A stretch of DNA of 33,465 nucleotides from a virus (taxonomy: Duplodnaviria > Caudoviricetes). The stretch is from positions 1 through 33,465 of the IMG/VR virus record IMGVR_UViG_3300005263_000075; one strand, written 5' to 3'. Positions 1-18,848 of this stretch are shown in pieces; the stretch's first letter is position 1, and each line of letters opens with the position of its first letter. The position numbers and the translations under genes are program-made. The notes below the pieces were generated by a model. That model made no database searches, was not told where the DNA came from, and was given only the letters and a program-made list of their open reading frames with translations.

Positions 1-783
1 TCATTCTTTCACCAGTAAATTGTAAGTTACACCATTTATTGTTACCGGCACAGCATTTAATCCGGTATTTGTAGAACCTCCAGGGGATGAGCTTACATAA
101 TAATCAGAATGATTCTTCTCTCCATAACCAGTTGATAAATACATTGTAGTACCACTAACTTTATAACCGGTCGCATTAACAAATCCGCCAACAGTTAATG
201 ATACAGCATCCCAGGTGAGGAAAGTAACCCCATTAAAAGATATTTTCGCATTGTCAGTAGCAATGATATTCAGGTATGAGTCTCCCTGAGCATCATCACC
301 GAATGATGTTGTTACACCTGTGAATGTTTTGGCACCGGTTATATATTCTGTACCAGACAGATGAACATAGTTAGCGGCTGCCGTAGTAATCGCACCATCA
401 ACGTAACTTTTATTTGTGAGTGATGCTGTATTATCCGGATTATAAACGCACCTCGGAGCTTCGTTCATAAAGAACGTTCGATTCCAAACCTTATTGGCTG
501 AGTCTGTACTTAGTGATGAACCCGGTGTGCCAATTTCTATTTTATTTGTAAATCTTTTTTGTCCCGGTAAGATTTCAAATCCTGTTGGATGTATTACACC
601 CGTCTTCAGAATATAATCTATATCCTTCAGATTTTGATTTATACTATCCGCACCAGGCCTGTCACCTTCATCCCACATACGAAGTTTATAGTACGTGGTG
701 TATCCGCTTGGCGGATCATACTGAGCTGATGCGATGGTTGACATAAGCATCAGGGTTATTAATATTAAGATTAATTTTTTCAT
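1..783 (-). CDS. Tail-fibre-like protein with an N-terminal Sec signal peptide
   Basis: Directly after the tape measure gene. MKKLILILITLMLMSTIASA|Q signal; TTYYKLRMW-x11-NQNLKDID fibre-anchor-like motif; LTNKSYVD and YVHLSGTEYITGAKTF fibre-shaft-like motifs; G/S/T-rich. Confidence 0.65.
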   Translation of the reverse strand: MKKLILILITLMLMSTIASAQYDPPSGYTTYYKLRMWDEGDRPGADSINQNLKDIDYILKTGVIHPTGFEILPGQKRFTNKIEIGTPGSSLSTDSANKVWNRTFFMNEAPRCVYNPDNTASLTNKSYVDGAITTAAANYVHLSGTEYITGAKTFTGVTTSFGDDAQGDSYLNIIATDNAKISFNGVTFLTWDAVSLTVGGFVNATGYKVSGTTMYLSTGYGEKNHSDYYVSSSPGGSTNTGLNAVPVTINGVTYNLLVKE

Positions 784-794
784 GTAATTATATT

Positions 795-3700
795 TTAAAT
801 TGTTCCGTCTAAAGTATCCTTGTTGATTCTTCTAAGTCCCTCTGATATTTTTGGTATCATCTCATCAACAATTTGATTCCATTCGCTGTCACTCAATCCT
901 GTAATCCTATTGGAGTTTACTTGTAAGCTTATACCGGGGTTTACTACTATAGATTTAGAACCCGATGGTGAGCCAAAAGATGCTGGGATGTCAAGTACTG
1001 GTACCTGAAGATTAAATCCTGCCGTGGCATTTGCAAAATATTTGCCGATGTCATTACCCTTATTCATAATATCAAGCCAATAACGATTTGCTGTAAAAGC
1101 AGTGCCTTTTTCACCAACAACATATTCTTTCTTATGAACTATTCCTGCTGGTTCCTTTGGGTCACCATCACCAGTGTATCCGCCACCATCAAAGAGAAAA
1201 CCGAAAATACTACTGATACCCGGTAAAAGAAAGTTTCCTATGGATTCAAAAAATTTAGATGCTGCAAGTTTTGTTAACTCCGCAGTAACATCCTTTATAA
1301 AGATTTGAAATATACTCCTTGCTTCACCAAATACACTGTTCCACATATTACTGAAACTGTTTTCTATTTGTGATATTGCATCGCTAAATCCATTTGTTAA
1401 TATACCTTTTAAAACCTTGTTAGATTCCGTTTCGATTTTTGCAACCTCTTTTATTCTTTCAAGGTCTTTCTGCTTCAGTAAATCGGAACGGGATACAGAT
1501 TCTGCATAAGTACTTACAATGCGTTCTTTTTCTTTTTGGTATTTCTTCTCAATATTGTCTTTTGCAATCGCATATTCATCGTTACTATTTTTTAAGGTGA
1601 TAGATTTTAATTCCTCATCGAGTGATTTCTGAGATTCAATCCGTGCCAAAGAGAGTTCTTTAGTCTTTTCATTTAGAAGTTTTTCAGACTGAAATTTCTT
1701 TTCATCTTCAGAGACCTTAGATTCTGTAACTTTTCGCTCCATTTCCTTGTATGCTAATTCAATATCAGCAGTCTCTTTATCAATTCCATGAAGTACTTTA
1801 GCCTGACGCTTTTCTAGAAATTTATCAACATCACTGATTAATGCATTACGGTCTTTTTCTGCTTTCTTTTGTTCATCGGAAAGTGATTTTTCAAGTTCAA
1901 GCTGTTTGGTTTTTAAGGATTCAATTTTCTCATTCGCTTTGCGTATATCATCAGCCTTAGTAAGAGTGGGAATTAAAATATCTAATTGTTCACGGTATTT
2001 TGTCAAAAGTTCATTCATTTGAGCTACACTGGCATCCCCGCGTTTCAATTGCTCATCCATAATCTTCACCTGAGAATCATATTCGGCGGTTAACTCTTTT
2101 AGTGCATCAAGCTCTTCTTTATCTTTACCGCTGCCTTTTTTCTTTTTTTGACCGCCGCCAGGAGGTTGAGTGTTATTTTCGTTCGTTGCAGTTTCCGCAC
2201 CGGTTAGTGCTTGTCTGACAGGGTCTTCGAATTTACCCCCCTTAGAATCTTTATCTTGATTTCTGAAGGCATTACCTATACGGTTTATGTCACCTTCAAT
2301 CTGATCCATGTGGGCTCTCCAACGAGAAGGATTAAATATTATATCATCAATACTTATATCAGATAAAGTATTTAAAGCTTTAGCAACCGCTATAACAGCG
2401 TTAGCAACATTAGATGCCCAACCAATAAGAGTTTTAAATACATCTATCACGGCATTAGCGTACCAAATAACACCTGCAAACCCTACTCCACCTAAAACTT
2501 TCAGAGCTTCTAATATCTGTGGATTCTGAATTATAAGATCAGTTATTATTTTATTAATTTTAAGAAAAGCTTCAATTGCTGTATTGACAATAACTTTTAA
2601 TAATTCAAATCCATTTTTCGCAAGATCTTTTAAAACGTCGAGCAATACTGAACCGCCATCACCGCTACCCTTAAACATATCAATAACACCACTCATATTT
2701 GTCTTTAGTTCATCCCATGCACCACTAAATTCATCAACTACAAATGACCATAAATCTTTCAAACCTTCCCATAAAGTGGATATTGTTTGTTTAAGATTAT
2801 TAATTGCATCTTCACCGCCAGCCATCGAAGTAACCCATGCTCTAATTGAATCTATATTTTCTGAAATATAAATTGCAATTCCACCGATTGCTGCAATAAC
2901 CGCCCCAATGATTATAGGAAGTCCACCAAGTTCAATGTTTAACGCAGAAAGAATTGGAATAAGCGCAACAGCGGCAATAGCCAGCGCACCTATTAAACCA
3001 ATTGTTGTTTGAATAGCTGGGGATAATGTTCCAAACCATTCGGCTAACCCCTGAACCGCTTTACATATTTCAAGAATTACAGGTGCAAATGCTTTTCCGA
3101 GATATTCTTTAATGTCACCAAATGCATTCTTAGTAATTTCAATTTGCCCTGCAAGGGTTTTTCCAAATGCTTCAGCTGTAATGGATGAGTTATTTGCAAG
3201 CAATGTTTCCATTGCTGCAAATCTTTCAGCTGCAGTATAAGTTTTCCACATAGATTTTGTGGTTTCATCCATTACGATGCCAACTCGTTGTAATGCACCG
3301 GACATTTCAGTTGCACCGGATTTGCCAATCATTATTGCCAGATTCTGAAGATTCATTCCTGTATCACCTGCCCGTGAAAATGCAGATGCAAGATTAAGCA
3401 TCGATGGTGTAAGTCTCTCTATTAATGCACCGCTGATTCCATCGAACGTGGTCATCATTGCCTGCATATTAGTAATATCCTGATCATCGAACGGAGTGAT
3501 TTTATGTAAATCTTCAGCTTGCTTTATTAATGTATTATAAAAATCACCTGCACCGATTCTTTCGAGACCCGCCTGCAATTTATTTTGTACAAGTTCTGCG
3601 TCGGCGTATTCTTTCCCCAGGTCCATTACATATGACTTCAACTCACCAAAAGCAGCTTTTACTTGATTGATTACACCAGTAATAATTTCAAATTTTGCAA

Positions 3701-3932
3701 AGGAATTGAGAGAATTGTTAACGGAATCTTTTACGTTATCAGCGAGCGATGGTAAACTCTTTAAATCATTTTTAAGAGGCTCGAAGTTTATATTATCAAC
3801 ATTTATATTCAAACCTTGTTTCATTTCCGACAAAGTCTGTTTGACCAGAGATAACGCAGCCTTTAAGTCACCTTGAAACTTTTCAAGGTCAACTCTAAAC
3901 TCAAGATTCGCACTTCCTAAATTCTCGGGCAT
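795..3932 (-). CDS. Tail tape measure protein
   Basis: 1045 aa, helical/coiled-coil with a central hydrophobic stretch; C-terminal FDGGGYTGDG..EPAGIVHKKEYVV motif typical of siphovirus TMPs; follows the chaperone genes. Confidence 0.93.
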   Translation of the reverse strand: MPENLGSANLEFRVDLEKFQGDLKAALSLVKQTLSEMKQGLNINVDNINFEPLKNDLKSLPSLADNVKDSVNNSLNSFAKFEIITGVINQVKAAFGELKSYVMDLGKEYADAELVQNKLQAGLERIGAGDFYNTLIKQAEDLHKITPFDDQDITNMQAMMTTFDGISGALIERLTPSMLNLASAFSRAGDTGMNLQNLAIMIGKSGATEMSGALQRVGIVMDETTKSMWKTYTAAERFAAMETLLANNSSITAEAFGKTLAGQIEITKNAFGDIKEYLGKAFAPVILEICKAVQGLAEWFGTLSPAIQTTIGLIGALAIAAVALIPILSALNIELGGLPIIIGAVIAAIGGIAIYISENIDSIRAWVTSMAGGEDAINNLKQTISTLWEGLKDLWSFVVDEFSGAWDELKTNMSGVIDMFKGSGDGGSVLLDVLKDLAKNGFELLKVIVNTAIEAFLKINKIITDLIIQNPQILEALKVLGGVGFAGVIWYANAVIDVFKTLIGWASNVANAVIAVAKALNTLSDISIDDIIFNPSRWRAHMDQIEGDINRIGNAFRNQDKDSKGGKFEDPVRQALTGAETATNENNTQPPGGGQKKKKGSGKDKEELDALKELTAEYDSQVKIMDEQLKRGDASVAQMNELLTKYREQLDILIPTLTKADDIRKANEKIESLKTKQLELEKSLSDEQKKAEKDRNALISDVDKFLEKRQAKVLHGIDKETADIELAYKEMERKVTESKVSEDEKKFQSEKLLNEKTKELSLARIESQKSLDEELKSITLKNSNDEYAIAKDNIEKKYQKEKERIVSTYAESVSRSDLLKQKDLERIKEVAKIETESNKVLKGILTNGFSDAISQIENSFSNMWNSVFGEARSIFQIFIKDVTAELTKLAASKFFESIGNFLLPGISSIFGFLFDGGGYTGDGDPKEPAGIVHKKEYVVGEKGTAFTANRYWLDIMNKGNDIGKYFANATAGFNLQVPVLDIPASFGSPSGSKSIVVNPGISLQVNSNRITGLSDSEWNQIVDEMIPKISEGLRRINKDTLDGTI

Positions 3933-3933
3933 A

Positions 3934-4293
3934 TTATTTTACTTTAAATCCTAATCTGCCGAGACCTGCCAACATCTTTTCTTCAGCTTTAATTTTTTCT
4001 TCCATAGTTAATTTTTTGTTGATGGTTGGTGTGGATATTTTATTATTAAAGGCTTCTAAGAGCTTTGTATTCTTTCCCGTGAAACAACCAGCTATCCAGT
4101 CCATATTTGCATAATGCATTCTGTACATTTCTATTTTATCTTCAAGAGATTTCTCGATTTTATTTTTAAGCATCCACAAACCGAACACATATTCGACCTG
4201 CCAAATCTCGTTGAATTTGGCAGGATCGTTATCTGCGAGTTTAGCGCATATCTCTTTGTATGATAATCTTTGCGAGTCATCACCTGTTATTTC
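3934..4293 (-). CDS. Tail assembly chaperone C-terminal extension (lambda gpT analogue), reached by -1 frameshift
   Basis: Open -1 frame relative to 4287..4658 (ORF track 3934..4398), entered at an A AAA AAG heptamer; abuts the TMP start. Confidence 0.8.
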   Translation of the reverse strand, partial: EITGDDSQRLSYKEICAKLADNDPAKFNEIWQVEYVFGLWMLKNKIEKSLEDKIEMYRMHYANMDWIAGCFTGKNTKLLEAFNNKISTPTINKKLTMEEKIKAEEKMLAGLGRLGFKVK

Positions 4294-4658
4294 TTTTTTT
4301 CCGGGATGCTGGCCTGGTTTGTGGCCGAACCACTTTTCATAGCCTCTTGCAAGGCTATCGAGAAAAAACGTATCAACTCCACAAAATCTTCGTGACACAT
4401 TTCACTTTTAAAGAATTTTCTGTACTGGTCGGTGCCACTTAAAGGGGCGAAGGTTTTGTCGGGGATTTCACAACCGTCGAGCATAAGTGTTGCAATCTCA
4501 GGTAACTTAACTCTGCTGACGAATAGCTCCGAGATTTTCTCATTGTCTATGACTCCCTGAGTAAGAGGGAAGCCTGCAACTTCATCGATTTTATCGAGTG
4601 TTTTAAAAGGGTACTTTGTACCTTTAAATTTTCTGCTGCCAATTTGGATTTCTGCCAT
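4287..4658 (-). CDS. Tail assembly chaperone (lambda gpG analogue)
   Basis: 123 aa ORF upstream of the TMP, ending CCG GAA AAA AAG AAA TAA. Confidence 0.8.
   Translation of the reverse strand: MAEIQIGSRKFKGTKYPFKTLDKIDEVAGFPLTQGVIDNEKISELFVSRVKLPEIATLMLDGCEIPDKTFAPLSGTDQYRKFFKSEMCHEDFVELIRFFSIALQEAMKSGSATNQASIPEKKK
4293..4299 (-). other. Programmed -1 ribosomal frameshift slippery site A AAA AAG
   Basis: In-frame X XXY YYZ heptamer one codon before the stop; the -1 frame reads on as KEITGDDSQRL to 3934. Confidence 0.85.
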
Positions 4659-4667
4659 GATGTAATA

Positions 4668-5327
4668 TTATTTAAAATTAAAAGAAAGTTCTGTTTCAAG
4701 TTTCCAACTTGCGTTGTTATAATCGTAGTATGCACCTCCGTCTACCCCTATCTTGTCAAATAAAGTAATACCGGTTTTAAGTCCTGCATAGTAATTGCGT
4801 TCATCGATGAACGGACCCGATGCATCCCTGAGGAATTTCGGATTTACAGTGAAGCTTCCTCTGATCACCGCATCAATACCTTTCCAGGTCACACGTTTTG
4901 AATCGATTCTGATTGCTCCGCTGTCTGCGTAGGCAATAAATTCAGAGCCGACGTTTGGGAAGATATATTTCTTTAAAAGCGAGTCATGTTCATTCCATCC
5001 GAATGCAATAATGTCTTTACGGTTCTTTTCTAAAGTAAGAATCATGTCCCTATATTGAATAGAGTTCTGAAAAACTGTATCACGGATTATCTGTGCTTCA
5101 GGTACAAGAGGAGTGACATCTCTGAATACAGTTTTATAAATAATATTGTTCCTGTATTTAATACGGTCTTTGTATTCAACTTTAAGAACTGTGTCCGTAC
5201 GTTGTATGTATTGTATTGATGGTCTTGGTGTGTTATCTGCCTTATCAGCCAGCCAAAGTGAAAATAGGAAATAACCTATTATGGCAAGTACTACAAAAGC
5301 TAAAATGTATATAATTGTTTTAGTCAT
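4668..5327 (-). CDS. Membrane-anchored lysis accessory protein, spanin candidate (probable start 5327, MTKTIIY)
   Basis: Directly after the endolysin; single N-terminal TM helix, extended DTV-containing region, amphipathic beta-strand C-terminus ending LSFNFK. Confidence 0.5.
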   Translation of the reverse strand: MTKTIIYILAFVVLAIIGYFLFSLWLADKADNTPRPSIQYIQRTDTVLKVEYKDRIKYRNNIIYKTVFRDVTPLVPEAQIIRDTVFQNSIQYRDMILTLEKNRKDIIAFGWNEHDSLLKKYIFPNVGSEFIAYADSGAIRIDSKRVTWKGIDAVIRGSFTVNPKFLRDASGPFIDERNYYAGLKTGITLFDKIGVDGGAYYDYNNASWKLETELSFNFK

Positions 5328-5334
5328 AAGTTTA

Positions 5335-5916
5335 TTAATTTTGATTATTAAATAATTTCCAGTAAGTATATCTGAATTCAAAAACGCTTTTTGAATAATC
5401 ACCACCAAAAGTATATTTATCTACATCATATCCATTATTGAGTGCCCTTAAAACATTTCCCTGACCACAATTGTATGATGCAACAATAGCCTGCAGAAAA
5501 ATATCATTACCGAGTTTTGCGGCATTGTATCCGTTGCGCTCAAGGAATAAACGTTTTTCTTCAAGCACCAATATTGATTTTTCGAAATATGAGATATAAT
5601 CTGAAAGCGGTGTATCTTCAATAAATTTCGGATAAGAATTAATATCGATTTGAATAAAACCAAAACCGTGATAACGCTTAGAACTTTCACCCGGGCGACG
5701 GCTATAATCACCTTTCATAAGACTGCAGATTGTTTCAAAGTCTTTACCCTGATTTGCGTAACGCAGTATCAGAAAACCAGTTTCCCGGCAGGTAATACCC
5801 GCGAGTAAAGCTTCTGTGTATAGTGAATCACTATATTTATTGTCAGTAAGCTCACGGATTGCGGACCCGAGGTTTTCGTGAATCCAGTTTAATATGTCAG
5901 TATTAGTTTTAATCAT
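5335..5916 (-). CDS. Endolysin, GH23 goose-type lysozyme / lytic transglycosylase fold
   Basis: AGITCRETG (catalytic Glu), HGFGFIQID, ASYNCGQGNV and DKYTFGGDYS match g-type lysozyme motifs. Confidence 0.9.
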   Translation of the reverse strand: MIKTNTDILNWIHENLGSAIRELTDNKYSDSLYTEALLAGITCRETGFLILRYANQGKDFETICSLMKGDYSRRPGESSKRYHGFGFIQIDINSYPKFIEDTPLSDYISYFEKSILVLEEKRLFLERNGYNAAKLGNDIFLQAIVASYNCGQGNVLRALNNGYDVDKYTFGGDYSKSVFEFRYTYWKLFNNQN

Positions 5917-5926
5917 TTTCTTTTTA

Positions 5927-5953
5927 AAGAGCCGCCGGTACAGGACGGCTCTT
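5927..5953 (-). terminator. Hairpin between holin and endolysin (weak terminator or mRNA stability element)
   Basis: AAGAGCCG (5927-5934) / CGGCTCTT (5946-5953) inverted repeat; only a short T run follows on the minus strand. Confidence 0.4.
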
Positions 5954-5974
5954 AATAATTAAATTTGTTATCGA

Positions 5975-6304
5975 TTATTTGGAATGATCTGTCAGATAAT
6001 ACCCGAATAGAAATATTCCTATTGCCTGTGCAGCCGCAACTATAAACGGAGGTATTATTATCTGCCAGAATGCATTAAGCACATATGTTGCTATTGTGAT
6101 AACCGTAGTTATTACTGCCATCACATTTGGCGGAGCTTCTTTAAAGCTGTTTGGGTCTGCAAACAACGTAATAATTGCAATCGCACCTGTAATCACAAAT
6201 GTTGTTACATCCGCTGGAATGGGTGTAACAAACGTATTGATTGCCCAAGCTACCATTGTAACTAAAGCTGTTATAAGACCTGCTAATGTCGTTCTAGGGT
6301 TCAT
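5975..6304 (-). CDS. Holin candidate, about four TM segments
   Basis: 109 aa, almost entirely hydrophobic, immediately upstream of the endolysin. Confidence 0.7.
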   Translation of the reverse strand: MNPRTTLAGLITALVTMVAWAINTFVTPIPADVTTFVITGAIAIITLFADPNSFKEAPPNVMAVITTVITIATYVLNAFWQIIIPPFIVAAAQAIGIFLFGYYLTDHSK

Positions 6305-6310
6305 TTTTTA

Positions 6311-6580
6311 TTAATTATTATTTAAAAGTTGTTTTGATTTGTCAGCTCTTGGATGCAGTGCCTCAAGATCTTGAAGTCGGGCATCCTGAGATGTTGTTTT
6401 GTTCTTTTCTGTCTGCATATCCTGCTGAACAGTTTTCATATCCACTCGTAGATCTTTAATTTCACCGTTTATGGAATACAAGATGAATGAGCCAAAGAAA
6501 CCTATAAGCGTAAAAAGAATACCGAAAACCATTATTGTTATCGTTAATGCACTTTTGTTATTCCCTGTTTGCTCTTCCAT
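6311..6580 (-). CDS. Single-TM plus coiled-coil membrane protein (holin/antiholin-like)
   Basis: One hydrophobic helix then heptads IKDLRVDMKTVQQDM; first gene of the lysis cassette. Confidence 0.5.
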   Translation of the reverse strand: MEEQTGNNKSALTITIMVFGILFTLIGFFGSFILYSINGEIKDLRVDMKTVQQDMQTEKNKTTSQDARLQDLEALHPRADKSKQLLNNN

Positions 6581-6628
6581 TTCTTATATTTATTTATTTT
6601 TTAGTTTTCTGCCTGAGTTTTAAAATCA

Positions 6629-6664
6629 GAGTGCAGGCAGTGGCAAGACGGTCTACCTGCACCC
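6629..6664 (-). terminator. Intergenic hairpin upstream of the lysis cassette
   Basis: Minus strand GGGTGCAGGTAG-N12-CTGCCTGCACTC followed by TGATTTT. Confidence 0.45.
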
Positions 6665-6676
6665 TATGTATCTCCA

Positions 6677-7192
6677 TTACATCGGAAATTTATAACTATA
6701 CCTTATTGGCTTTAGATATTTTTGGTCGTTAACAATTAACTGATTGTTCCAATTTACGAACCTATTGTTTTCGTTTGTGAAATGTTTTCCGGAGCCTTCT
6801 ACTTGTTTTTCAATTCGGTTAAGTTGTAGGTCACCTAATATCACCTGAGAAAAAACACTGTCTGATTCTGCATGCCTGAATATTTTGTAAGTTAGGCAGT
6901 TAAATCTCAATGTTTTTTCAGGCGGTACAATCACATAACTGTTTGCAAGTTTTGCACCATACCTATCAGAAAAATATACAATCAAATTCTTTGATGCAGA
7001 TTGATTGGTTATAATTCCTGTGCGGGTTGCGACACTCGTATACTTAACGGTGTCTTCTGCCGTTTTCACGTACTTAGCAGTTGTACTTGCCTGAATAGGC
7101 TGCTGTGCTTTTGCTTCATTCAGTAACGGCATAGAGAACATAACCAATACTAACAAAATCACTGACAGCCTGAATGCATTTCTGAGTTTCAT
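6677..7192 (-). CDS. Secreted (signal peptide) beta-rich protein, paralogue of the 8562..9404 N-terminal domain
   Basis: MKLRNAFRLSVILLVLVMFSMPLLNEAKA|QQ signal with AxA site; lies right after the major tail gene. Confidence 0.6.
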   Translation of the reverse strand: MKLRNAFRLSVILLVLVMFSMPLLNEAKAQQPIQASTTAKYVKTAEDTVKYTSVATRTGIITNQSASKNLIVYFSDRYGAKLANSYVIVPPEKTLRFNCLTYKIFRHAESDSVFSQVILGDLQLNRIEKQVEGSGKHFTNENNRFVNWNNQLIVNDQKYLKPIRYSYKFPM

Positions 7193-7285
7193 TCTATTTC
7201 CTTTCTTTTTTTCCCGGTGTAATCCCCATTATTCTTTGAGTGCACCCGGTTTGATTTATGTTTATAATTATGATAGTTAATTTTA

Positions 7286-7858
7286 TTAAGCACCCGGTTC
7301 CGGCACAGCTGGCGCAGCATAGCCATCAATCTCAAGAGTACCCAACGTCATCACATTATCAACTTCTTTTGGAAGTGCTACAAAGCTGAATGTAAATGCA
7401 TTTTCTTTATCCTTCACGAATTGAAGCTTTAAGCCACCTGATGATTGAATTTTAAGAAGCGTGATGGTTATGTATTTTGTCTCATCCATAGGACGCGGAA
7501 CTTTATAAATCAATTCAGCTTCCGGAGGAGCAACAAGGTTTGATTTAATTGTGTACGTTAGCTTATTGTTCTCAATATCCTCCACAACATCATTCGGGTC
7601 ACCACCGAGAGCAATAACAAGATTACGCATTGACATCTCGAGCAATACGATAGTTCCTTTTGTATCACGACCAATAATAACTTGTTTAACTGGATCAAGT
7701 GACTGATCAGCCAGGATGTTTAATAGTTTCGGTTGAGATTCGAGGTTAAAATCTCTCGACAAACCTACAAAAGTTGGATTTGCTTCTCCTTTGAATTTAA
7801 GAGATAAATTACCAGCTCCAATTTGTATATCATCCGGGTTAAAGATATTTTCTGCCAT
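7286..7858 (-). CDS. Major tail (tube) protein, siphovirus type
   Basis: IQIGAGNL..FVGLSRD..LLEMSMRNLVIALG..LQFVKDKE..FTFSFVAL pattern of tail tube proteins; AAGGAG RBS upstream; no sheath gene. Confidence 0.85.
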   Translation of the reverse strand: MAENIFNPDDIQIGAGNLSLKFKGEANPTFVGLSRDFNLESQPKLLNILADQSLDPVKQVIIGRDTKGTIVLLEMSMRNLVIALGGDPNDVVEDIENNKLTYTIKSNLVAPPEAELIYKVPRPMDETKYITITLLKIQSSGGLKLQFVKDKENAFTFSFVALPKEVDNVMTLGTLEIDGYAAPAVPEPGA

Positions 7859-7911
7859 TTGTTTAATTCTCCTTTACTTTTAAAAGTTTATTTTCAAAAT
7901 TGTTTTATGTT

Positions 7912-8565
7912 TTAGTGGTTAATCAGTATTTGTTTGCACTTATATTTCCGTTCGTTAAGCATATAAATTGCATTTGAGAAATCAATCTTACCGTAACCGT
8001 TAGTTGGCGAGAAGGGTTGTTTTGTACTTAATTTAGCATAATTAAACGCATCGGATAAACTGCATTTGGAGCTGTCTTTAATACGGGCAAGTTTGCCCGC
8101 TATATATCCGTTAGAGTAACTACTCGCCATTTGCCCCGTAGTATCTTTATCGTAGAAATGTATTGGATAACCTGTCTTATTAGCAGTATCTCCGGCGCCT
8201 GTTGCAACAATAATACTCAATGTATTACCTGTATTAATGTGTGAATTACTGCCCGACGGCATTATAAATAAAATATCTGGGTTATTAATAGCAAGTGACT
8301 GGATTGTAAAACCACCATAACCGGTTGTACTTCTTACTAAAAAGTTAAACCCGGTATTTCTTAATGAATCTATAAATCCTTGATTCAGATAAGAATTAGC
8401 AGAGCGAATCACAGTTATATTATTTAGATTCCCGCCGCAATCTATATAGCCTTGCTTTACACATTCCTCAACGATTGAATCATGCTCACCTCCGTAACCA
8501 CTCACCATAACTTTACTTTGTGCAAAGAGTAAACAGGGAAATAATATGATTAATAATATTCTCAA
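7912..8565 (-). CDS. Secreted miniature subtilisin-like (S8 fold) protein
   Basis: Signal MRILLIILFPCLLFA|Q; HDSIV (HGTxV-like), FIMPSGSN (VxAAGN-like), IVATGA, ASSYSNGYIAG (GTSMAxPxVAG-like) and GYGKIDFSNAI in subtilase order. Confidence 0.6.
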   Translation of the reverse strand: MRILLIILFPCLLFAQSKVMVSGYGGEHDSIVEECVKQGYIDCGGNLNNITVIRSANSYLNQGFIDSLRNTGFNFLVRSTTGYGGFTIQSLAINNPDILFIMPSGSNSHINTGNTLSIIVATGAGDTANKTGYPIHFYDKDTTGQMASSYSNGYIAGKLARIKDSSKCSLSDAFNYAKLSTKQPFSPTNGYGKIDFSNAIYMLNERKYKCKQILINH

Positions 8566-9404
8566 CCTGCGACCCCTATGTAAATAAATCCATTTAAAAT
8601 ATCATCAGAGAAATTGGATCTTAGGTTTCCGTCCATAACACTTCCAACCTGTAAGTATATACAAATGTTGAAAGTATCTTGTATGTTATAAGAAGGACTA
8701 ATAAAATCAAAATTTACATTGTTCAACATAACAAACAGATATGTGTGAGATGAGAAGATTGTATCCGAAGCTGTAATATAATAAGTTCCTGGAGCGTTTC
8801 TTGTTGCAGTTATTGTTACCCCAACAAAGTCATTTTTTAAAACCGTAATTGATGGATTCTGTTCACCAGTTTGAGAGACTGCCAATATGATTTCTTTCTT
8901 CCCGAGTATTTCGGATTGATTTTTAGGATAGAATCCATTGCTATCACTGAATACATAACTATTTGGGAAGTCTGACGCTTTAATTACATTTTCGGAATAA
9001 AGAGAATCAATTGTAACTTTATGTGTAAAATGATAACCGAGTGCTGTGTCAAGATTTAATGATGTCTTCCTGATTACATCAACATCATTTATGTACATTA
9101 TTATGTTTGTCCCGGCGGATTTTCCTTTGCTGATAATTTTTATACCATCAAATTTAATAATGATTTTTTCGCCTTTACCTATTCCTATGTAATTTATAGA
9201 TGAGAATTTACCATCTCGGTCTGGAATATAAGTAAAAACAGAATCGCTGCCGATATTTTCAATTTTGACCGAACGATAACTGTTCACTCCAAAAAATGTA
9301 GTATCGTTAGAAGTGCCGATTGTTTTTCTTATGATCTGTGGGTTCTGTGACATTGCGACATTAGTCGCACAAATCAGTATTATTAATATTATTCGTTTCA
9401 ACAT
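8562..9404 (-). CDS. Secreted (signal peptide) two-domain structural-like protein
   Basis: MLKRIILIILICATNVAMS|Q signal; C-terminal SQTGEQNPSITVLKN..TRNAPGTY..SDDILN resembles phage fibre C-terminal domains (recall, not searched). Confidence 0.55.
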   Translation of the reverse strand: MLKRIILIILICATNVAMSQNPQIIRKTIGTSNDTTFFGVNSYRSVKIENIGSDSVFTYIPDRDGKFSSINYIGIGKGEKIIIKFDGIKIISKGKSAGTNIIMYINDVDVIRKTSLNLDTALGYHFTHKVTIDSLYSENVIKASDFPNSYVFSDSNGFYPKNQSEILGKKEIILAVSQTGEQNPSITVLKNDFVGVTITATRNAPGTYYITASDTIFSSHTYLFVMLNNVNFDFISPSYNIQDTFNICIYLQVGSVMDGNLRSNFSDDILNGFIYIGVAG

Positions 9405-9406
9405 TT

Positions 9407-9859
9407 TTATTTTTGTTTATTTATTATTAAAGCCTTTATTGGAAGTATCATTTGCATACAAGGATTAGCTTCTATCATTGTCATATAGTTTTCACCTCTT
9501 CCGAAATTAATACCTCGAATCTTTACAATAAGCTTGTCTATGATTTGTTTTGTCTTAGTGTACAAATCATCTTTATAGTTTTTAATTTCTTCCTCGGTCA
9601 TGACGTCCAGGTTCTTGCATTCGATTAGCAAATACATCGTGCATTCCTGAGTCGAACCATAAATTGTTGCACAGTCACCCTGACCAAAATTAAACGGCTC
9701 TTCATCAATGATTACTGCAGGATATGCAGTAGGAACAATCAGCTGTGTCCTGGAGACATACTTAATGAAATCTAAACCGAGAGTCGCTTCACCCTCTACA
9801 TAGTCACCCTGATTTCTGTTTGCGTTAATCACTGCAATTATTTTTTCCTGAAGTTCCAA
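9407..9859 (-). CDS. Putative tail terminator / tail completion protein
   Basis: 150 aa, YPAVIIDE motif, position after the neck gene. Confidence 0.55.
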   Translation of the reverse strand: MELQEKIIAVINANRNQGDYVEGEATLGLDFIKYVSRTQLIVPTAYPAVIIDEEPFNFGQGDCATIYGSTQECTMYLLIECKNLDVMTEEEIKNYKDDLYTKTKQIIDKLIVKIRGINFGRGENYMTMIEANPCMQMILPIKALIINKQK

Positions 9860-9864
9860 TTGTG

Positions 9865-10371
9865 TTATGCCTGAAGTTTTAAATTCTTAATTATGAAATC
9901 TGTATTCATCATAAGTGCCATCTTTAAGAATGGAAGTCCCTGTGTTCCGGTCCTTGAAATCTTACGTGCGATTAAGAATGCTATTGCTCTAGCTTTCGCA
10001 TCATCACCTTCCTTTACTGCGCGTCTCATCGTTGTTGGTTTACCCTTAGCATCTCTTAATATTCCTTTTTGGATTACCCATTTAACCAGCGGATCGATTG
10101 GAGGAAAGTGAGCCTTAGTACCTTCATGTTCGTATATGCCATAAGGAACGTTTGCACCAACACCAACGACACCGATGATCTGTCCGGCAGATTCGTAAAC
10201 CTGCTCACGTAAATTCTTTACTAACTCCGCAGATGCGACTGCTTTTTTATCGCGGATGATTCTATCGGCATCACGATGAAGTTTAAGAAGAATAACCATC
10301 AACACTTTTTCGATAGTGCTTCTTACGTTTTTATAATACTCATCAAACTTATTTTCGAAGTTATCTTCCAT
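9865..10371 (-). CDS. HK97 gp10-like neck / tail-component protein
   Basis: VGANVPYGIYEHEGT..GTQGLPFL motifs. Confidence 0.8.
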   Translation of the reverse strand: MEDNFENKFDEYYKNVRSTIEKVLMVILLKLHRDADRIIRDKKAVASAELVKNLREQVYESAGQIIGVVGVGANVPYGIYEHEGTKAHFPPIDPLVKWVIQKGILRDAKGKPTTMRRAVKEGDDAKARAIAFLIARKISRTGTQGLPFLKMALMMNTDFIIKNLKLQA

Positions 10372-10907: not shown

Positions 10908-11837
10908 TTATTGTTCTAACTCTCCAATTACTATTGCATCAGGGATTACAAAGTTCGCATCAATATCCATCGAAGATACTATACTGATATTCTGCTTAAA
11001 AATATCCTTATCGCGTTCAACGAGCATCTGCTGACCATATCCTATCGCAAGGTTTTCGGGAAGTGTGAGAAGGATTACTCCTTCAGGCATAACCCATAAA
11101 GGTTCTACAAGAATATCTTCGCAGAATACCGGAGCATTTTTCACTGACATAAGATCACCAAGGGCAGTATTTCTTTCAGCAAGTTCATCTTTGTAAGCCC
11201 TTCTTGTTTTAGGGCTTACTATAAAACTAAGAGCGGCCGGATCAGACTGAAATTCACTTGGAAGTTTATCAAGCATTCCTTTAAAGATTGAAGAATACTT
11301 CATATTAGCATCAAACGGGAATTTATGAGTTGCGGCATGTAAATGGGCTTTTTTATTGATACCGTCTATAATCTTGTAGAATTTGCTTTGAGATTGCTTA
11401 TCACCTTTAAATGCAAGAGCAAGTGAATCGTTTGCCCATTGCTTTGAAAATAGGTCAAACACCTTTGCTTCGAGTGCTTGTTTCATTTCAGGCGTTATCT
11501 CTACATTTCCGCCAATTGCTTTTTGCAGCCAGTCGTAAGTAAGCTTCACCATTGCCATAGCTTTAACTGGCGTGAGTGTTTCAACACCTCTATGGACACC
11601 TGCTAAATCTTCGATAGCTGTATCTTCTAACTTTTCCCTTAAAATCTCTGTGTCGATGCCGAGTCTGTCTAAGTCAAGAGACTTAACTATCCCGGAATCA
11701 ATTCTCATTTTTTTCATAAACCCTGATTTATCTTTCAGAGTCGTTATGAATTCCGTGAGCTGTGCACCGTTCATCAATCCACCAACAGCGAGATCAATGG
11801 CTTCTTTCCACAACTGGATTCTTTCTGAGTTATTCAT
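10908..11837 (-). CDS. Major capsid protein (HK97 fold, PBSX XkdG / P2-like)
   Basis: GGLMNGAQLTEFI, LAFKGD..IIDG, RNTALGD, LLTLPENLAIG, DAIV motifs; follows the protease gene. Confidence 0.9.
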   Translation of the reverse strand: MNNSERIQLWKEAIDLAVGGLMNGAQLTEFITTLKDKSGFMKKMRIDSGIVKSLDLDRLGIDTEILREKLEDTAIEDLAGVHRGVETLTPVKAMAMVKLTYDWLQKAIGGNVEITPEMKQALEAKVFDLFSKQWANDSLALAFKGDKQSQSKFYKIIDGINKKAHLHAATHKFPFDANMKYSSIFKGMLDKLPSEFQSDPAALSFIVSPKTRRAYKDELAERNTALGDLMSVKNAPVFCEDILVEPLWVMPEGVILLTLPENLAIGYGQQMLVERDKDIFKQNISIVSSMDIDANFVIPDAIVIGELEQ

Positions 11838-11879
11838 CTATGTATTATTTAATTAAGTAATGATGTTTAATAAATTTGT

Positions 11880-13031
11880 TTATTTAAGCCCGAGAAAATT
11901 AAATTTTCCAGAACTTTTAGCAACTTCCTCAGACTTGCCTGGTTCCTGACCACTACCCGGGGTAGCTTTCTTTAATTCTTCGTTTTCTTTCTTGAGCGTC
12001 TCGACTGTGGCGGTCAACTCTGTAATTTTTGCATCAGATTCTTTCTTTAATTCTGCTGCCTTTTTTTCGACGGCTTCGTCGATGCTTTTTTGAATGTTCG
12101 GTTCCACTTTATTATCTGTTTTAGTTTCTGAATTTGTTTTAAGTTCGTTAAGTGCATCAATCGCAGCATTTAACTTAGAAAGTGTTGCTTCAGAAAGAGT
12201 CTTTCCGGCTTTCTCAATATCAATTGTATCGCCTTTCATAAGGTCTACTACTATACTTTTGGCAATGTTAATTGAATCTATTTTCGTTTTGAACTGGTCA
12301 ATGTTCGTGAGGATTTGAGTTTTCTTATCTGTTATATTCTCATCATTTAAAACCTGCCGAATTGAATCTGACAGTATCCACACATAGTCCTGTATATCCT
12401 GAGTGCCGACCAGTGCGTTAAAATCTTTTATGACTTTAATTTTATTGTCTTCCATTTTATTATTGTCTGTGTTTAATAAACCTTTAATTAGAGTAATAAA
12501 CTTTTTTACAACTGGTAAATCTTCCTTTGTGATGTCTTCGGAATTTGTGATGCGTTCTGCAGTGCCGTACATTGAGAAACCTGTGAATGTTCCGTCTTTA
12601 ACCTGAGACCATATTTCCTCGTTATCGACTTTCACGACAATAGCCCAGGCTCCAGGATCTTCCGGGTATAACTCGTCACCCTTTGCCACGATGTAGCACT
12701 GTACAATCTTTACATCTTTTGCAATCTGTAAATTATGACCTGTGTCAACTTTAGCAGTCGAATCAAGTTTCGCCATGAAATTATGACAAGCTTTTTCAAC
12801 CTCGTCGGCATTAGCATAGTCACCTTGTGTGTCGACTTTTCCGACGGGATAAACCAATCCGTAAACAAGCCTTTTCTCATCGTCTTTTTTAACTATGTCA
12901 AAATTACGAAGTGCGACAGATGTCGGTAATTCCATTGTACCAGCAGATTTAAAAATGAATTGAGTTTTATTGGCTGCTTTTCCAACGATAGAAATTAAAT
13001 CTATATCAATATTTCTGAGTTCGGATTTCAT
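11880..13031 (-). CDS. XkdF-like prohead serine protease with fused C-terminal coiled-coil scaffold
   Basis: KRLVYGLVYP..DTQGD..EKACHNFM..H..GAW..WSQVKDGTFTGFSMYG; K/E-rich coiled-coil tail. Confidence 0.88.
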   Translation of the reverse strand: MKSELRNIDIDLISIVGKAANKTQFIFKSAGTMELPTSVALRNFDIVKKDDEKRLVYGLVYPVGKVDTQGDYANADEVEKACHNFMAKLDSTAKVDTGHNLQIAKDVKIVQCYIVAKGDELYPEDPGAWAIVVKVDNEEIWSQVKDGTFTGFSMYGTAERITNSEDITKEDLPVVKKFITLIKGLLNTDNNKMEDNKIKVIKDFNALVGTQDIQDYVWILSDSIRQVLNDENITDKKTQILTNIDQFKTKIDSINIAKSIVVDLMKGDTIDIEKAGKTLSEATLSKLNAAIDALNELKTNSETKTDNKVEPNIQKSIDEAVEKKAAELKKESDAKITELTATVETLKKENEELKKATPGSGQEPGKSEEVAKSSGKFNFLGLK

Positions 13032-13697: not shown

Positions 13698-14150
13698 TTA
13701 TTCTTTATATTTTATTGTAACAGAAACAATTGTCTTTTCCCAATTAAGCATAAAATATTTGTCAGATGATTCCCAAAAAATGGAGTACGACCGATAACCA
13801 AGCAATACCTCATTTGCTATTGTCCAGTTGAAACTTCTTGCGGCTTCATCATACTTATCATCTTTCTTATAATACGGTCCAAGTCTTTTGCTCAGATAAG
13901 CCCAGCACCCATAGAAAAAATCATCTGTCGTAGTCATTTTATTTAATTGAAGAACTTTCTTTTCCGCACTGTACATAGCCCCATCAAATTCTTGCATATT
14001 TAACTTTGTATAATAAGTATCATCAAAATAAACTTTTGTGTTCCATTTCAAGAACTGTTCTCTATCATCAAGATCAATGCCAAACATTACTTGGCAAAAA
14101 GATACAGACGATGAGAATAAAATAATTAGTAACAAAAACAAGTTTCTCAT
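13698..14150 (-). CDS. Secreted hypothetical protein downstream of the repressor
   Basis: Signal MRNLFLLLIILFSSSVSFC|Q; same strand as the repressor. Confidence 0.6.
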   Translation of the reverse strand: MRNLFLLLIILFSSSVSFCQVMFGIDLDDREQFLKWNTKVYFDDTYYTKLNMQEFDGAMYSAEKKVLQLNKMTTTDDFFYGCWAYLSKRLGPYYKKDDKYDEAARSFNWTIANEVLLGYRSYSIFWESSDKYFMLNWEKTIVSVTIKYKE

Positions 14151-14260: not shown

Positions 14261-14932
14261 TCATTTTACATCACGGATAATTTTCATTAATTTATATATA
14301 TGATATATATCGCTTCTTTTTACTATTGTCGGTTCATGTTTTGTGTTTACCGAATAAAGCATGATTAGATCGTTCTGTAAGTATTTTATTAATTTTGCAT
14401 TCCCATCCGATGTTTCTGGCTCAGTTTTAAAATTTACAACAACAGTTCTGCCGTTCTTGATTAGATGAGGTTCATCCGAGCATAATAGTAAATCGTTCGG
14501 ATTAATAAACGGTGTCATCGAATCCCCTTTAGCTCTTAATATAAAAGGATTATTTAAGTGACTTACATCGTTAACGGTATAATACTCCGAACCATATTCA
14601 TTCCAGCTATGTAAAGGTAAACCACATCCAACACTTCCTACAAACGGTACCTCTCTTGTTTTAGTTTTGTATAGAACATTGGTTTCATTAACTGTTTTAA
14701 ATGACTTATCAATATATTTATTACCAATTCCGGTAAACAACCATATTAAATTTACATGTGCATTATTAACAAACTTATCTAATATTTCTGTTGAAGGTTG
14801 TGTTCTTCCGGTCTCGTAATCAGATATTAATTGATAGCCAATCCCAATCCGCTGTGCAAACTCTTTCTGAGTTAAGCCCTCTCTTAACTCTTTAACCCTC
14901 TTTTGAAAGGTTTGCTTATTAAAATCTGACAT
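14261..14932 (-). CDS. Phage repressor, XRE HTH plus S24 (LexA/CI-type) autopeptidase; probable start 14932 (MSDFNKQ)
   Basis: LTQKEFAQRIGIGYQLISDYETG HTH; VGCG cleavage-site-like motif; GDSM catalytic Ser; NAKLI Lys. Confidence 0.92.
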   Translation of the reverse strand: MSDFNKQTFQKRVKELREGLTQKEFAQRIGIGYQLISDYETGRTQPSTEILDKFVNNAHVNLIWLFTGIGNKYIDKSFKTVNETNVLYKTKTREVPFVGSVGCGLPLHSWNEYGSEYYTVNDVSHLNNPFILRAKGDSMTPFINPNDLLLCSDEPHLIKNGRTVVVNFKTEPETSDGNAKLIKYLQNDLIMLYSVNTKHEPTIVKRSDIYHIYKLMKIIRDVK

Positions 14933-14950
14933 ATTTAAAATGTGTTTGGC

Positions 14951-15002
14951 AACCGCTTTTAATCTTAACGTGATGATGGTTAAGACATGGTTAAAAACGG
15001 TT
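14951..15002 (-). promoter_or_regulatory. Nested inverted repeat in the repressor 5' leader
   Basis: AACCGCTTTTAA / TTAAAAACGGTT (11/12) enclosing TCTTAAC / GTTAAGA. Confidence 0.45.
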
Positions 15003-15044
15003 AATACTAAATTAATGGGTAGTTGTGAATTTATCAAGTGAATT

Positions 15045-15116
15045 CTTGATATAACGAAGATTTTAACAAAATCGTTAAGTAACGGATTTTGTACTTGACA
15101 AATACGTTATATAACG
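15045..15116. promoter_or_regulatory. Three putative repressor operators, consensus CGTTATATAACG
   Basis: CTTGATATAACG 15045-15056, CGTTAAGTAACG 15073-15084, perfect palindrome CGTTATATAACG 15105-15116. Confidence 0.75.
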
Positions 15117-15125
15117 ATATTTTTG
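15095..15125 (+). promoter_or_regulatory. Early lytic promoter
   Basis: TTGACA (15095-15100), 17 nt containing the perfect operator, TATTTTTG (15118-15125). Confidence 0.75.
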
Positions 15126-15160
15126 TTTAAGAATTCTTTAACAAACGAATTAGAACAAAT

Positions 15161-15511
15161 ATGACATTAAAAGAACAACTGAAGAAAAAGGGTAAATCAA
15201 TCAGAGGTATTGCTAATGACTTACGGCTCAATCATTCTACAGTATTACAGATTCTCGATAATACTTATGATGGAAAGCAATCCACAAAAGAAAGAGTATT
15301 AAATCATATTACATTCGTTCTTGTCGATAAGGATGATCTTAATGATGTGGTTTATTCGAATCATGAACTTTTCATTAGAGCATTAACATTCGCACAACGA
15401 TCACTGAAAAATTTTACTGATGACGAAGCACTTGTATTAATGGAGACAGTTCTGAAATTAAAAAAATATAAAAAACATACCGATGATGAAAAAGAGAATA
15501 AATCAATTTAA
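15161..15511 (+). CDS. Ner/Cro-like HTH regulator
   Basis: LKKKGKSIRGIANDLRLNHSTVLQIL HTH; first early gene, divergent from the repressor. Confidence 0.75.
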   Translation: MTLKEQLKKKGKSIRGIANDLRLNHSTVLQILDNTYDGKQSTKERVLNHITFVLVDKDDLNDVVYSNHELFIRALTFAQRSLKNFTDDEALVLMETVLKLKKYKKHTDDEKENKSI

Positions 15512-15698
15512 CGAAACGCGTAACGTTAAATTAATAAAGATGATGGAAAGGGCAGGATTAAAAGACAAAGTCATAGCCCAAAAAATAGGTATTAGCCCTG
15601 TTTGGTTATCTAAAATCAAGAATGGGAAATGTGTCCCGAAAGAAACAATTTCCAAACTCGAAAATTTCCTTAATGAATTTAATAATAAGGTAGCATGA
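15483..15698 (+). CDS. Small XRE-family HTH protein
   Basis: LKDKVIAQKIGISPVWLSKIKNG. Confidence 0.75.
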   Translation: MMKKRINQFNETRNVKLIKMMERAGLKDKVIAQKIGISPVWLSKIKNGKCVPKETISKLENFLNEFNNKVA

Positions 15699-15737
15699 TA
15701 ATAATTTACAACTCTATTAACCTTTAATTATATCATT

Positions 15738-15923
15738 ATGTACGACTTTGAAAATCAATTGAAAAGGTACAAGAAGAAATGCGCTTTCAACAAGCGGCTT
15801 TACAAAGACCGTAAAGAACTCAGAGATAATCAAAAAGTAAATTCGACTGAGACGAATAAAGTAAATGCACTTCGTGCTTTCAACGATAATTTAAAAACAA
15901 CACGAATAATATGTCTGAACTAA
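15738..15923 (+). CDS. Small basic hypothetical protein
   Basis: 61 aa ORF overlapping the transposase start. Confidence 0.4.
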   Translation: MYDFENQLKRYKKKCAFNKRLYKDRKELRDNQKVNSTETNKVNALRAFNDNLKTTRIICLN

Positions 15924-17887: not shown

Positions 17888-18848
17888 TAACAACTCAGCT
17901 AAAAAAATTATTACGTTTGATTCGTATTCAGATGATGCTGAATATACAAACGTAAATGCGGGCAAAATTCAAAAAGCATTAAAGAGGCTTATTGAAGTTT
18001 TAGGGTTTTCACAGAACCAGCTTTCGAGAAAAATTGAGATTTCTTCTTCCGTTCTATCTCAAATTCTGAAGGCAAAGTATGAATACGATAAAGACAATTC
18101 CGTATGGGTTCAGATTGAAAAATTCCTTAATGAAATAAATGGTGACATATTTGAAACCGAACTTTACACAAAGGTTCACAAAATATTAAACCAGACATTT
18201 AAGGAAAAGATAATCACGGTTATTACATCAGCTTCCGGCGCAGGGAAGACACTTGCGGCAAAGAGGTACTGTTTTATAAACCACGATGCAATGCAAATCC
18301 GAATCACAGAGGTATTCAATGTGAAATTCCTTTTACAAAAAATGATGCAGTCAGTTGATGCTGAATGGGAAGGATATTCAAAGCAGCACATGTTTGAATC
18401 ACTTTCCGATATGCTCCGTAAGAAACCACGTTTGTTTGTAATAGATGAAGCTGAGCGACTTCACGTTCCAGAGCTCGAGACACTTCGTGATCTATATGAC
18501 CAGGGCAATATAGGTTTATGTTTAATCGGTCAGGAGATTCTAAGGAAAGTCTTACAAGAAGGTCACACACGGAAAAAGGATTTAGTTCAATTGTATTCTC
18601 GCATTGCCTTCTCGAAAGTCGTAAATATACTTACCCCGAAAGATATAATTATGGTATTCGATAAATTTTGTCCTGATTATGATTTATCGGAAAATAAAAT
18701 CAAGAAGCTGTCTTCGTATTATGCTGCGAAAGGTGGAATAAGGGCAATTGAAAACATTGCTAAATACGCGGCAAAGAATGCAAAGAAATATGAGTATACT
18801 GTTAATGATGAGTTTATTGATAACGTGATTTCAAAAATATCTTTATAA
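17880..18848 (+). CDS. MuB-like transposition AAA+ ATPase with N-terminal HTH
   Basis: FSQNQLSRKIEISSSVLSQIL HTH; Walker A SASGAGKT; Walker B FVIDEAE; LRDLYD; QLYSRI. Confidence 0.93.
   Translation: MINNNSAKKIITFDSYSDDAEYTNVNAGKIQKALKRLIEVLGFSQNQLSRKIEISSSVLSQILKAKYEYDKDNSVWVQIEKFLNEINGDIFETELYTKVHKILNQTFKEKIITVITSASGAGKTLAAKRYCFINHDAMQIRITEVFNVKFLLQKMMQSVDAEWEGYSKQHMFESLSDMLRKKPRLFVIDEAERLHVPELETLRDLYDQGNIGLCLIGQEILRKVLQEGHTRKKDLVQLYSRIAFSKVVNILTPKDIIMVFDKFCPDYDLSENKIKKLSSYYAAKGGIRAIENIAKYAAKNAKKYEYTVNDEFIDNVISKISL

Follow-up and report, generated by a model that had tools for sequence, protein, structure and literature searches.

Here we examine four genes that lie among the head, neck, and tail genes of a transposable long-tailed phage (Duplodnaviria; Caudoviricetes) and whose products start with a predicted export leader followed by glutamine. 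The stretch of DNA analyzed, hereafter the window, is the whole of virus record IMGVR_UViG_3300005263_000075 (33,465 bp). One of the four (1..783) encodes a fiber-like protein with a conserved N-terminal anchor, and the reading we favor, with a probability of about 0.7, is that such fibers mature in the periplasm and dock on the tails at lysis. To our knowledge, tailed-phage particles are taken as built wholly in the cytoplasm.

The four open reading frames (ORFs) were confirmed on the minus strand and begin, as the original prediction described, with basic, hydrophobic, and small residues ahead of a glutamine. Cleavage is predicted between ASA and Q21 in 1..783, AKA and Q30 in 6677..7192, LFA and Q16 in 7912..8565 (which uses a TTG start), and AMS and Q20 in 8562..9404. 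Leaders were called with a simple heuristic of our own together with family conservation. By this heuristic, the four carry the marks of substrates of the general secretory (Sec) pathway and signal peptidase I under the Q-rule, namely a basic n-region, a hydrophobic core, small residues at -3 and -1, and glutamine at +1; no lipoprotein cysteine was found by it. The strict form flags five of 45 annotated window genes (three of the four, a spanin-like gene, and 13698..14150) and misses 7912..8565 because of a proline in the hydrophobic core. A proline-tolerant form finds leader plus glutamine in five of 47 window ORFs, that is, in all four and in 13698..14150.

The genes also share their strand and tight spacing with structural genes, as had been claimed: 8562..9404 follows the gene at 9407..9859 after 2 nt and overlaps 7912..8565 by 4 nt, and the other gaps measure 53 nt ahead of the tube gene, 93 nt behind it, and 11 nt behind the tape measure gene. 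A promoter scan confined to the sigma-70 consensus stayed at chance level, with 69 sites against 64.3 in shuffled sequence, and so told nothing about promoters. Both signal and synteny are kept in a relative: locus L001 retains all four leaders in identical gene order, and the pattern is therefore beyond chance. Past its fiber gene, L001 continues with a small extra leader gene and then leaderless genes for an 803-amino acid (aa) hub-like and a 158-aa Dit-like protein (named by position; PHROGs gave no match); the tail end of L002 is the same. Thus, the observation of four leaders is solid, and export is strongly implied by the sequences. Two variants of this idea were rejected. Secretion by a type IX system (T9SS) was set aside since none of the four proteins matched its C-terminal domain in Pfam or NCBIfam, and disulfide-driven export since three of the four mature chains have a single cysteine each.

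An independent sign of export comes from O-glycosylation. According to the available part of a glycosylation review, modification of the Bacteroidota motif is restricted to non-cytoplasmic proteins, and the main text, as far as available, does not mention Ignavibacteria (PMC12871550). When D[ST][AILVMT] was counted in mature chains and compared with shuffles, the four chains held 13 motifs vs 3.24 (fourfold; reached in 0 of 5000 shuffles), whereas the reversed motif gave 4 vs 3.26 in the same chains. The other 14 late-arm ORFs held 15 vs 10.5 (195 of 2000 shuffles) and the remaining 29 window ORFs 13 vs 15.1; the product of 13698..14150 has none. Over ten loci, 28 leader proteins contain 145 motifs vs 39.3 expected, against 142 vs 123.6 in 159 other ORFs. 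All 79 of the 79 anchors contain D-S-[ILV]-N. The excess supports export and suggests that glycans may be attached.

The virion role is best developed for 1..783, whose product combines a conserved N-terminal attachment region with repeats and a variable C-terminus. We read it as a fiber because a fixed N-terminus is borne on variable heads within tail modules. Eight close relatives have the leader, the glutamine, and an invariant anchor in common with it. Residues 40-95 of the family profile match residues 10-64 of BppL, the receptor-binding protein (RBP) of phage TP901-1 (E 6e-5); the BppL_N match of 1..783 itself has E 2.8e-4, with a Pfam score of 20.8 that lies below the cutoff of 25.8. 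Its atlas neighbors are viral proteins, one of them a T4 gp36-type fiber (score 0.90). The AlphaFold monomer was unusable (mean confidence, pLDDT, 41.8), a leader-free anchor profile matched no chain in the PDB, and 1..783 has no match to DUF2793 (PF10983).

Anchor and leader go together throughout the family. A search of 1.84 billion representatives with a query that included the leader gave 497 matches at E<=0.001. Among the 154 examined (the 150 matches listed and four others, with leader and anchor judged by eye), 78 hold the anchor, each time after a leader or leader remnant and ahead of very different C-termini. A leader-free alignment, with which 7,999 candidates 124-2000 aa long were scored, returned 80 matches: 77 have a full hydrophobic core, three a remnant, and none is leaderless, and a small residue plus glutamine is found in 75. 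The three remnants are miscalled starts, one being the window's own gene. A DNA pattern of the anchor alone retrieved ten loci on nine viral contigs, all ten with a leader (L015 belongs to the same contig as L001, L017 is nearly identical to L018, and L016 and L023 share a contig). These come from unrelated phages and lie in long-tail modules (L015, L020, L021, L022, and L024), beside baseplate-wedge genes (L017/L018 and L023), after portal and head-morphogenesis genes (L016), or in an unassigned structural block (L019); metagenomic L004 and L005 are further anchor loci of contractile-tail type. Across the family the N-terminus is conserved and the C-termini span 111-1019 aa. In cultured phages the anchor was not found (best E 0.2, unrelated SSB genes). 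The leader in 80 of 80 leader-free matches and the glycosylation-motif enrichment together argue for export and periplasmic maturation, as originally proposed.

The candidate counterpart of the anchor is a short C-terminal peptide. The pattern G[YFW]G-x-[YWF][GS], sought within 30 residues of the C-terminus in 317 ORFs (18 loci), matches only eight: the subtilase-like protein with its own GYGK and seven leaderless neighbors of anchor genes. A six-frame scan adds a GYG in L019 and one in an alternative frame in L021. A leaderless protein with a GYG C-terminus lies no more than three genes away in nine of ten readable anchor loci vs none of five loci without an anchor (the window, L003, L020, and L024 end too early to be readable). 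The carriers are unrelated to each other (Dit-like, amidase-like, wedge-adjacent, and others), which fits a portable peptide. Scanning for the peptide alone yielded at least 120 loci and 93 distinct matches, 48 of them near a C-terminus among the matches listed. None of the 48 next genes has a leader, and 26 start with W..G-x7/8-[DN].[ND], a pattern that fits 52 of 78 exported anchors and five of the 317 background ORFs, all five being anchors. DUF2793 occurs in 17 of these 26 leaderless fibers, with cultured examples, and a profile of the leaderless N-terminus ranks exported anchors in all of the top 45 of 395 places. One GYG tail matches the C-terminus of the JBD30 hub (8rk3; E 0.0047); according to the available text of PMC11445458, the RBP trimer receives this C-terminus in its helical bundle.

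Two observations concern the genes next to the anchor. In L021 (~860..810, minus strand), the gene upstream of the anchor fiber stops at a nine-T run, past which another frame encodes the GYG peptide and overlaps the fiber start codon; this may be a programmed frameshift, phase variation, or a homopolymer error. An amidase or amidase-like gene directly precedes the anchor fiber in L004 (6221..6793), L005 (4299..4874), and L002 (3114..3536). In L004 and L005 the amidase itself bears the GYG tail, which suggests a virion-bound wall hydrolase as socket.

Several known systems resemble parts of this arrangement. JBD30 is likewise transposable and long-tailed, and the GYG-like C-terminus of its hub (gp53) docks into the trimer of the adjacent-gene fiber gp54 (PDB 8RK3; available text of PMC11445458). 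However, gp54 is leaderless and cytoplasmic, and here the protein that carries the GYG tail is Dit-like, wedge-adjacent, amidase-like, or of another kind. The DUF2793 fibers of cultured phages of Pseudomonas, Klebsiella, Proteus, and others (e.g., JG054 gp25/gp26) are encoded right after a GYG-x-x-YG C-terminus and show a similar N-terminal spacing (W..G-x7-N.N). They differ, among the matches listed, in lacking a leader (0/48) and D-S/T-x-N at the anchor position (0/26), and the exported family has no DUF2793 match. TP901-1 BppL (PDB 4hem, 3u6x, and 4v96; PF18338) aligns over its N-terminal helix and first fiber repeat, but the match is short and the protein is leaderless, cytoplasmic, and from a phage of a Gram-positive host. 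Phages phi10:1 (gp091-094) and phi18:3 (gp085-087) of Cellulophaga give leader-plus-glutamine proteins annotated as structural by tandem mass spectrometry in cultured Bacteroidota phages; the annotations are those of the sequence records, the text of which is silent on leaders. Filamentous phage coat proteins are virion proteins made with Sec leaders, inserted in the membrane and assembled in non-lytic extrusion, whereas the proteins here would be soluble parts of a tailed, lytic particle.

These elements can be combined into a model. In the cytoplasm, head and tube would be put together with the tape measure, the hub, and a leaderless tail protein whose C-terminal peptide is GYG-x-x-YG, and the product of 1..783 and its three partners would be exported by Sec. 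Signal peptidase I would cut before the glutamine, which may then be capped as pyroglutamate following the Q-rule of the host, and O-glycosylation at D-S/T-hydrophobic sites may follow in the periplasm. The anchor would trimerize and dock on the GYG peptide, much like JBD30 gp54 on the C-terminus of gp53, and the three partners would likely decorate neck or tail. Loading is presumably timed at lysis, when the operon's own lysis genes open the inner membrane and bring the two pools together. Work on T4 indicates that fibers can attach to finished particles in mixed lysates. The likely gain lies in modifications available only in the periplasm (glycan and pyroglutamate) that would harden or mask the outer gear, rather than in disulfides. 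A virion role for 1..783 is thus supported by the TP901-1 RBP match, the tail context, the GYG partner, and the phi10:1 precedent. More broadly, we see about even odds that widespread FCB-type (Fibrobacterota, Chlorobiota, and Bacteroidota) phages of several tail types build their virions in two compartments by means of a portable plug-and-socket pair, in which the GYG-x-x-YG peptide stays cytoplasmic and the trimeric anchor is exported, O-glycosylated, and capped with pyroglutamate, so that host-matured glyco-fibers snap on at lysis.

A number of points weigh against this model. For this phage, both the virion loading and the docking pair are read from sequence; the GYG-bearing gene falls outside the cut window and is known from relatives only, and L016 has an anchor and no GYG neighbor. 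There is some circularity in the ranking of exported anchors by the leaderless profile, since a pattern common to the anchor had served to choose the leaderless set. A profile-profile comparison of the anchor with the N-terminus of leaderless DUF2793/gp54 fibers reached a probability of 2% (E 0.025), only two of the 26 leaderless N-termini exceed the best 1% of shuffles when scored with the anchor profile, and gp54 gets no score from that profile; homology between the two is thus only weakly suggested. Some of the sequences behind the counts given above are related to each other, so the counts do not stand for independent events. The phi10:1 leader proteins neither match the anchor nor are enriched in the glycosylation motif (5 vs 12.7), and the invariant D-S of the anchor could be a helix cap instead of a glycosite. 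Finally, the host has been deduced indirectly, and the genome labels of relatives disagree.

Of the alternatives, the one that survives best, although we hold it unlikely, is that the proteins are exported and never join the particle, acting as decoys, receptor blockers, or envelope modifiers that are encoded in the tail operon and expressed late or in the lysogen. The genes lom and cor of lambda and llp of T5 sit in such operons. Porphyromonas gingivalis phages encode five proteins with signal peptide and Gln+1 that resemble ours in these features; in contrast to virion parts, they are of unknown function and taken as modifiers of the host outer membrane and envelope, as far as the available text goes (PMC10367356). 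The phage of the window also carries an export of the moron type, since its fifth leader gene lies beside the repressor (13698..14150, probably a lysogenic moron), and the subtilase-like domain recurs in a host-type T9SS cargo protein (P0024). In addition, L016 encodes at 9815..10150 a 111-aa anchor protein with a proline-rich linker and a hydrophobic C-terminal stretch, possibly a membrane-tethered decoy or a broken gene. Yet a decoy should conserve its receptor-binding end, whereas in this family it is the N-terminal anchor that stays constant and the C-terminus that changes, and leaderless GYG-tailed neighbors track the anchor. Nor did the heuristic find a lipoprotein cysteine or any of the four a T9SS C-terminal domain like that of P0024, and leader-bearing proteins are annotated in purified Cellulophaga virions. 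The four genes are conserved in presence rather than sporadic, and the promoter scan stays at chance level. Beside its repressor, L001 has an unrelated leader-type gene (L007 15717..16262). The probable moron of the window, 13698..14150, offers a helpful contrast to the four.

The three partners are less well placed than the fiber. The model of the 7912..8565 product (pLDDT 80.8) adopts a subtilisin fold (Foldseek to subtilisin BPN', PDB 1sua: E 4.9e-6, TM-score 0.59), and its family keeps the positions of the S8 histidine, serine, and oxyanion asparagine. It differs from subtilisin S8 proteases in its size of ~200 aa, the missing prodomain, and an incomplete Asp-His-Ser triad: the first-strand aspartate is present in two of ten aligned members and is replaced by serine in 7912..8565 (position assigned by eye). 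There is no Pfam S8 match for 7912..8565 and no PDB sequence match for its family, and the subtilase-like protein was not found in cultured phages. Its gene has a leader in three of eight phage loci and is leaderless in five, where it adjoins head, neck, or tail genes; no member was seen in the stretches read of anchor loci L020, L022, and L024. A dedicated exported maturase as core of the system was therefore rejected, and the notion that the phage needs an exported protease of its own finds no support. More likely, 7912..8565 encodes an enzyme or binding module that the phage carries along. A short basic strand of the K-Y-H-R-K-I-Y-I-K type forms the end of phage subtilase-like proteins (window 7912..7950, minus strand; P0014-P0019; L001 405..1373) and could be a second attachment tag.

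The gene at 8562..9404 is the usual upstream partner of the subtilase-like gene, and the C-terminal part of its product weakly resembles (E 0.014-0.049) leaderless L012 and L014 proteins that precede the subtilase-like gene there. The family of 6677..7192 has a leader in four of four members (window, L001, L020, and L024); it matched no family in PHROGs, Pfam, or NCBIfam and had a top atlas score of 0.83, and it is a probable tail decoration. Position and conservation suggest that all three may be incorporated in the virion. A profile search linked 1..783 to the TP901-1 RBP and a fold search linked 7912..8565 to subtilisin, and family, PDB, cultured-phage, and atlas searches returned no virion homologue for the three partners. 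This last result would also suit a quite improbable scenario in which only the fiber joins the particle, the others being exported helpers of lysis or release, or in which a vesicle or T9SS route delivers proteins that attach later from outside. The three flank the lysis block, and the subtilase-like protein retains its His/Ser/Asn set. On the other hand, its leaderless orthologues lie among head, neck, and tail genes of five other phages, and L023 carries a leader-bearing copy in a baseplate block, between a leader-bearing partner and directly before the anchor fiber.

Least probable of all is that the leaders are not used for export, through a downstream start, cytoplasmic clipping, or possibly dual-start cytoplasmic and exported forms: in-frame internal Met codons occur in 1..783 (12/14), 6677..7192 (18/21), and 8562..9404 (18), gene callers chose downstream starts (P0005 and P0013), five of eight subtilase-like genes are leaderless, and prohead-protease cleavage is the explanation given in the available text of PMC10367356 for N-termini that resemble leaders in certain P. 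gingivalis capsid proteins, but many family members have no Met codon between start and glutamine (e.g., P0009, P0011, and P0012; for those known as protein sequences, ATG starts alone are counted), the upstream starts abut the preceding stop codon, and Gln+1 and the glycosylation-motif excess make sense only after export. Weighing these alternatives, we retain the two-compartment model for export, periplasmic maturation, and the virion role of 1..783, all by inference; what finds no support in the original interpretation is an exported protease as a required maturase.

The phage itself is a transposable (Mu-like) long-tailed phage, as it encodes a repressor and Ner, a Mu-type DDE transposase A, ATPase B, GemA, and DUF3164 proteins (Table 1). 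The window is a trimmed provirus record since it begins and finishes precisely on stop codons. Its tail module is truncated on the left, as relatives continue with hub-like and Dit-like genes and a 102,892-bp contig on record carries the 1..783 gene as well. The late genes are split over two arms: the left arm (minus strand) holds protease, capsid, neck, tube, lysis, and tape measure genes and, from 11880..13031 on, faces away from the repressor, and the right arm holds terminase, portal, and an F-like gene. This layout is not an assembly error because it is identical in relative G001 (the source of L001), with a capsid 48% identical to that of the window. The host is likely an FCB bacterium, most likely of Ignavibacteria type, judging from the Gln+1 leaders, the glycosylation motif, and the host-type relative P0024 with its T9SS-style C-terminal domain (recognized by eye). 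For I. album, a Q-value of 77% is given in the available text of PMC5837995. The genome labels of relatives (Bacilli, Methanogenium, Dictyoglomus, and Gammaproteobacteria) conflict, probably through misbinning, and were not used. Scans of viral contigs with single proteins (tube and capsid) found zero loci.

Table 1. Genes and features of the window (positions in the window; strand as given)
Position	Strand	Feature	Basis and remarks
1..783	-	Predicted exported fiber-like protein, 260 aa	Leader 1-20, Gln21, anchor 22-58, BppL-like repeats, variable C-terminal head
604..723	-	Anchor motif, ~residues 21-60	D.PSGYT..Y.LR.W..G..P.ADS.N.N..DID (alignments); predicted trimer docking on GYG tail
795..3932	-	Tape measure protein	phrog_58, E 2e-21
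3934..4658	-	Two genes, probably for tail assembly chaperones	Before tape measure; same place in L001, L002, L020, L024; no family match
4668..6580	-	Probable lysis block	Spanin-like 4668..5327, SLT-like endolysin 5335..5916, holin-like 5975..6304, membrane/coiled 6311..6580
6677..7192	-	Leader+Gln30 protein, 171 aa, conserved ~95-aa domain	After tube gene; 54% to L001
7286..7858	-	Probable tail tube protein, leaderless	phrog_2175 'protein with Ig domain', E 2e-8; identity judged by size and position
7912..8565	-	Minimal subtilisin-fold protein with leader+Gln16	His28, Ser149 invariant; Asn107 9/10; first-strand Asp mostly absent
8562..9404	-	Leader+Gln20 two-domain protein	Matches L001 orthologue at 42% over 113 aa
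9407..10830	-	Probable tail terminator, neck/tail-completion (9865..10371), and adaptor genes; leaderless	phrog_5, E 7.7e-6 for 9865..10371; rest positional
10908..11837	-	Major capsid protein	One of phrog_1623/phrog_3017 matches in 10908..13031
11880..13031	-	XkdF-type prohead protease	PF14550; with capsid heads late operon
13698..14150	-	Fifth leader+Gln gene, beside repressor	Heuristic; outside late operon; no glycosylation motif
14261..18848	repressor -; transposase A, ATPase B +	Repressor, Ner-like genes, Mu-type transposase A, ATPase B	PF01381+PF00717, PF09299, PF13401
27890..33465	+	Terminase, portal, F-like head gene	PHROGs matches; opposite arm from capsid-tail operon

Some further observations complete the gene map. 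The matches of the lysis block are weak (SLT E 0.041; Rz-like E 0.0079 for 6311..6580), and other lysins fill the endolysin slot in relatives. Three DNA methyltransferase-like genes (24205..26416 and 30231..31049; one PHROGs match, two by eye) include one inserted between terminase and portal, and 23879..24205 has a SEC-C-like cysteine motif. L001 carries tandem tail-tube paralogues (1538..2710 and 2791..3339), the first longer by ~210 residues that look Ig-like and leucine-rich by eye. Leader-bearing genes of other families occur among capsid, neck, and tail genes in L010 (6752..9080), L014 (2719..3378), L019 (9884..10577), L020 (6531..9224), and L024 (8051..10232); in some of these phages the subtilase-like gene is leaderless. 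In the contractile-tail phage of L018 (15218..20039), three genes that look like glycosyltransferases by eye follow leader-bearing tail genes.

Exported virion parts are not described in the available parts of PMC5723332, PMC8143477, PMC12014285, and bioRxiv 10.64898/2026.03.17.712343, nor is periplasmic maturation of tailed-phage parts in the titles and abstract openings of the open-licence PMC and bioRxiv papers that searches aimed at it listed. The lack of a signal peptide is even treated as support for phage origin in the available text of PMC6199706. A periplasmic arm of assembly would let the export, pyroglutamate, and glycosylation machinery of the host shape infectivity and host range, and it predicts defective particles from glutaminyl cyclase or glycosylation mutants. 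On this view, many a leader-bearing "moron" of phage tail regions would be a virion part that has been misread. If true, particles would wear the glycan of their last host and could take up fibers made by co-resident phages. The anchor/GYG pair is, moreover, a small testable binding reaction that may be reusable for attaching separately folded proteins to tails.

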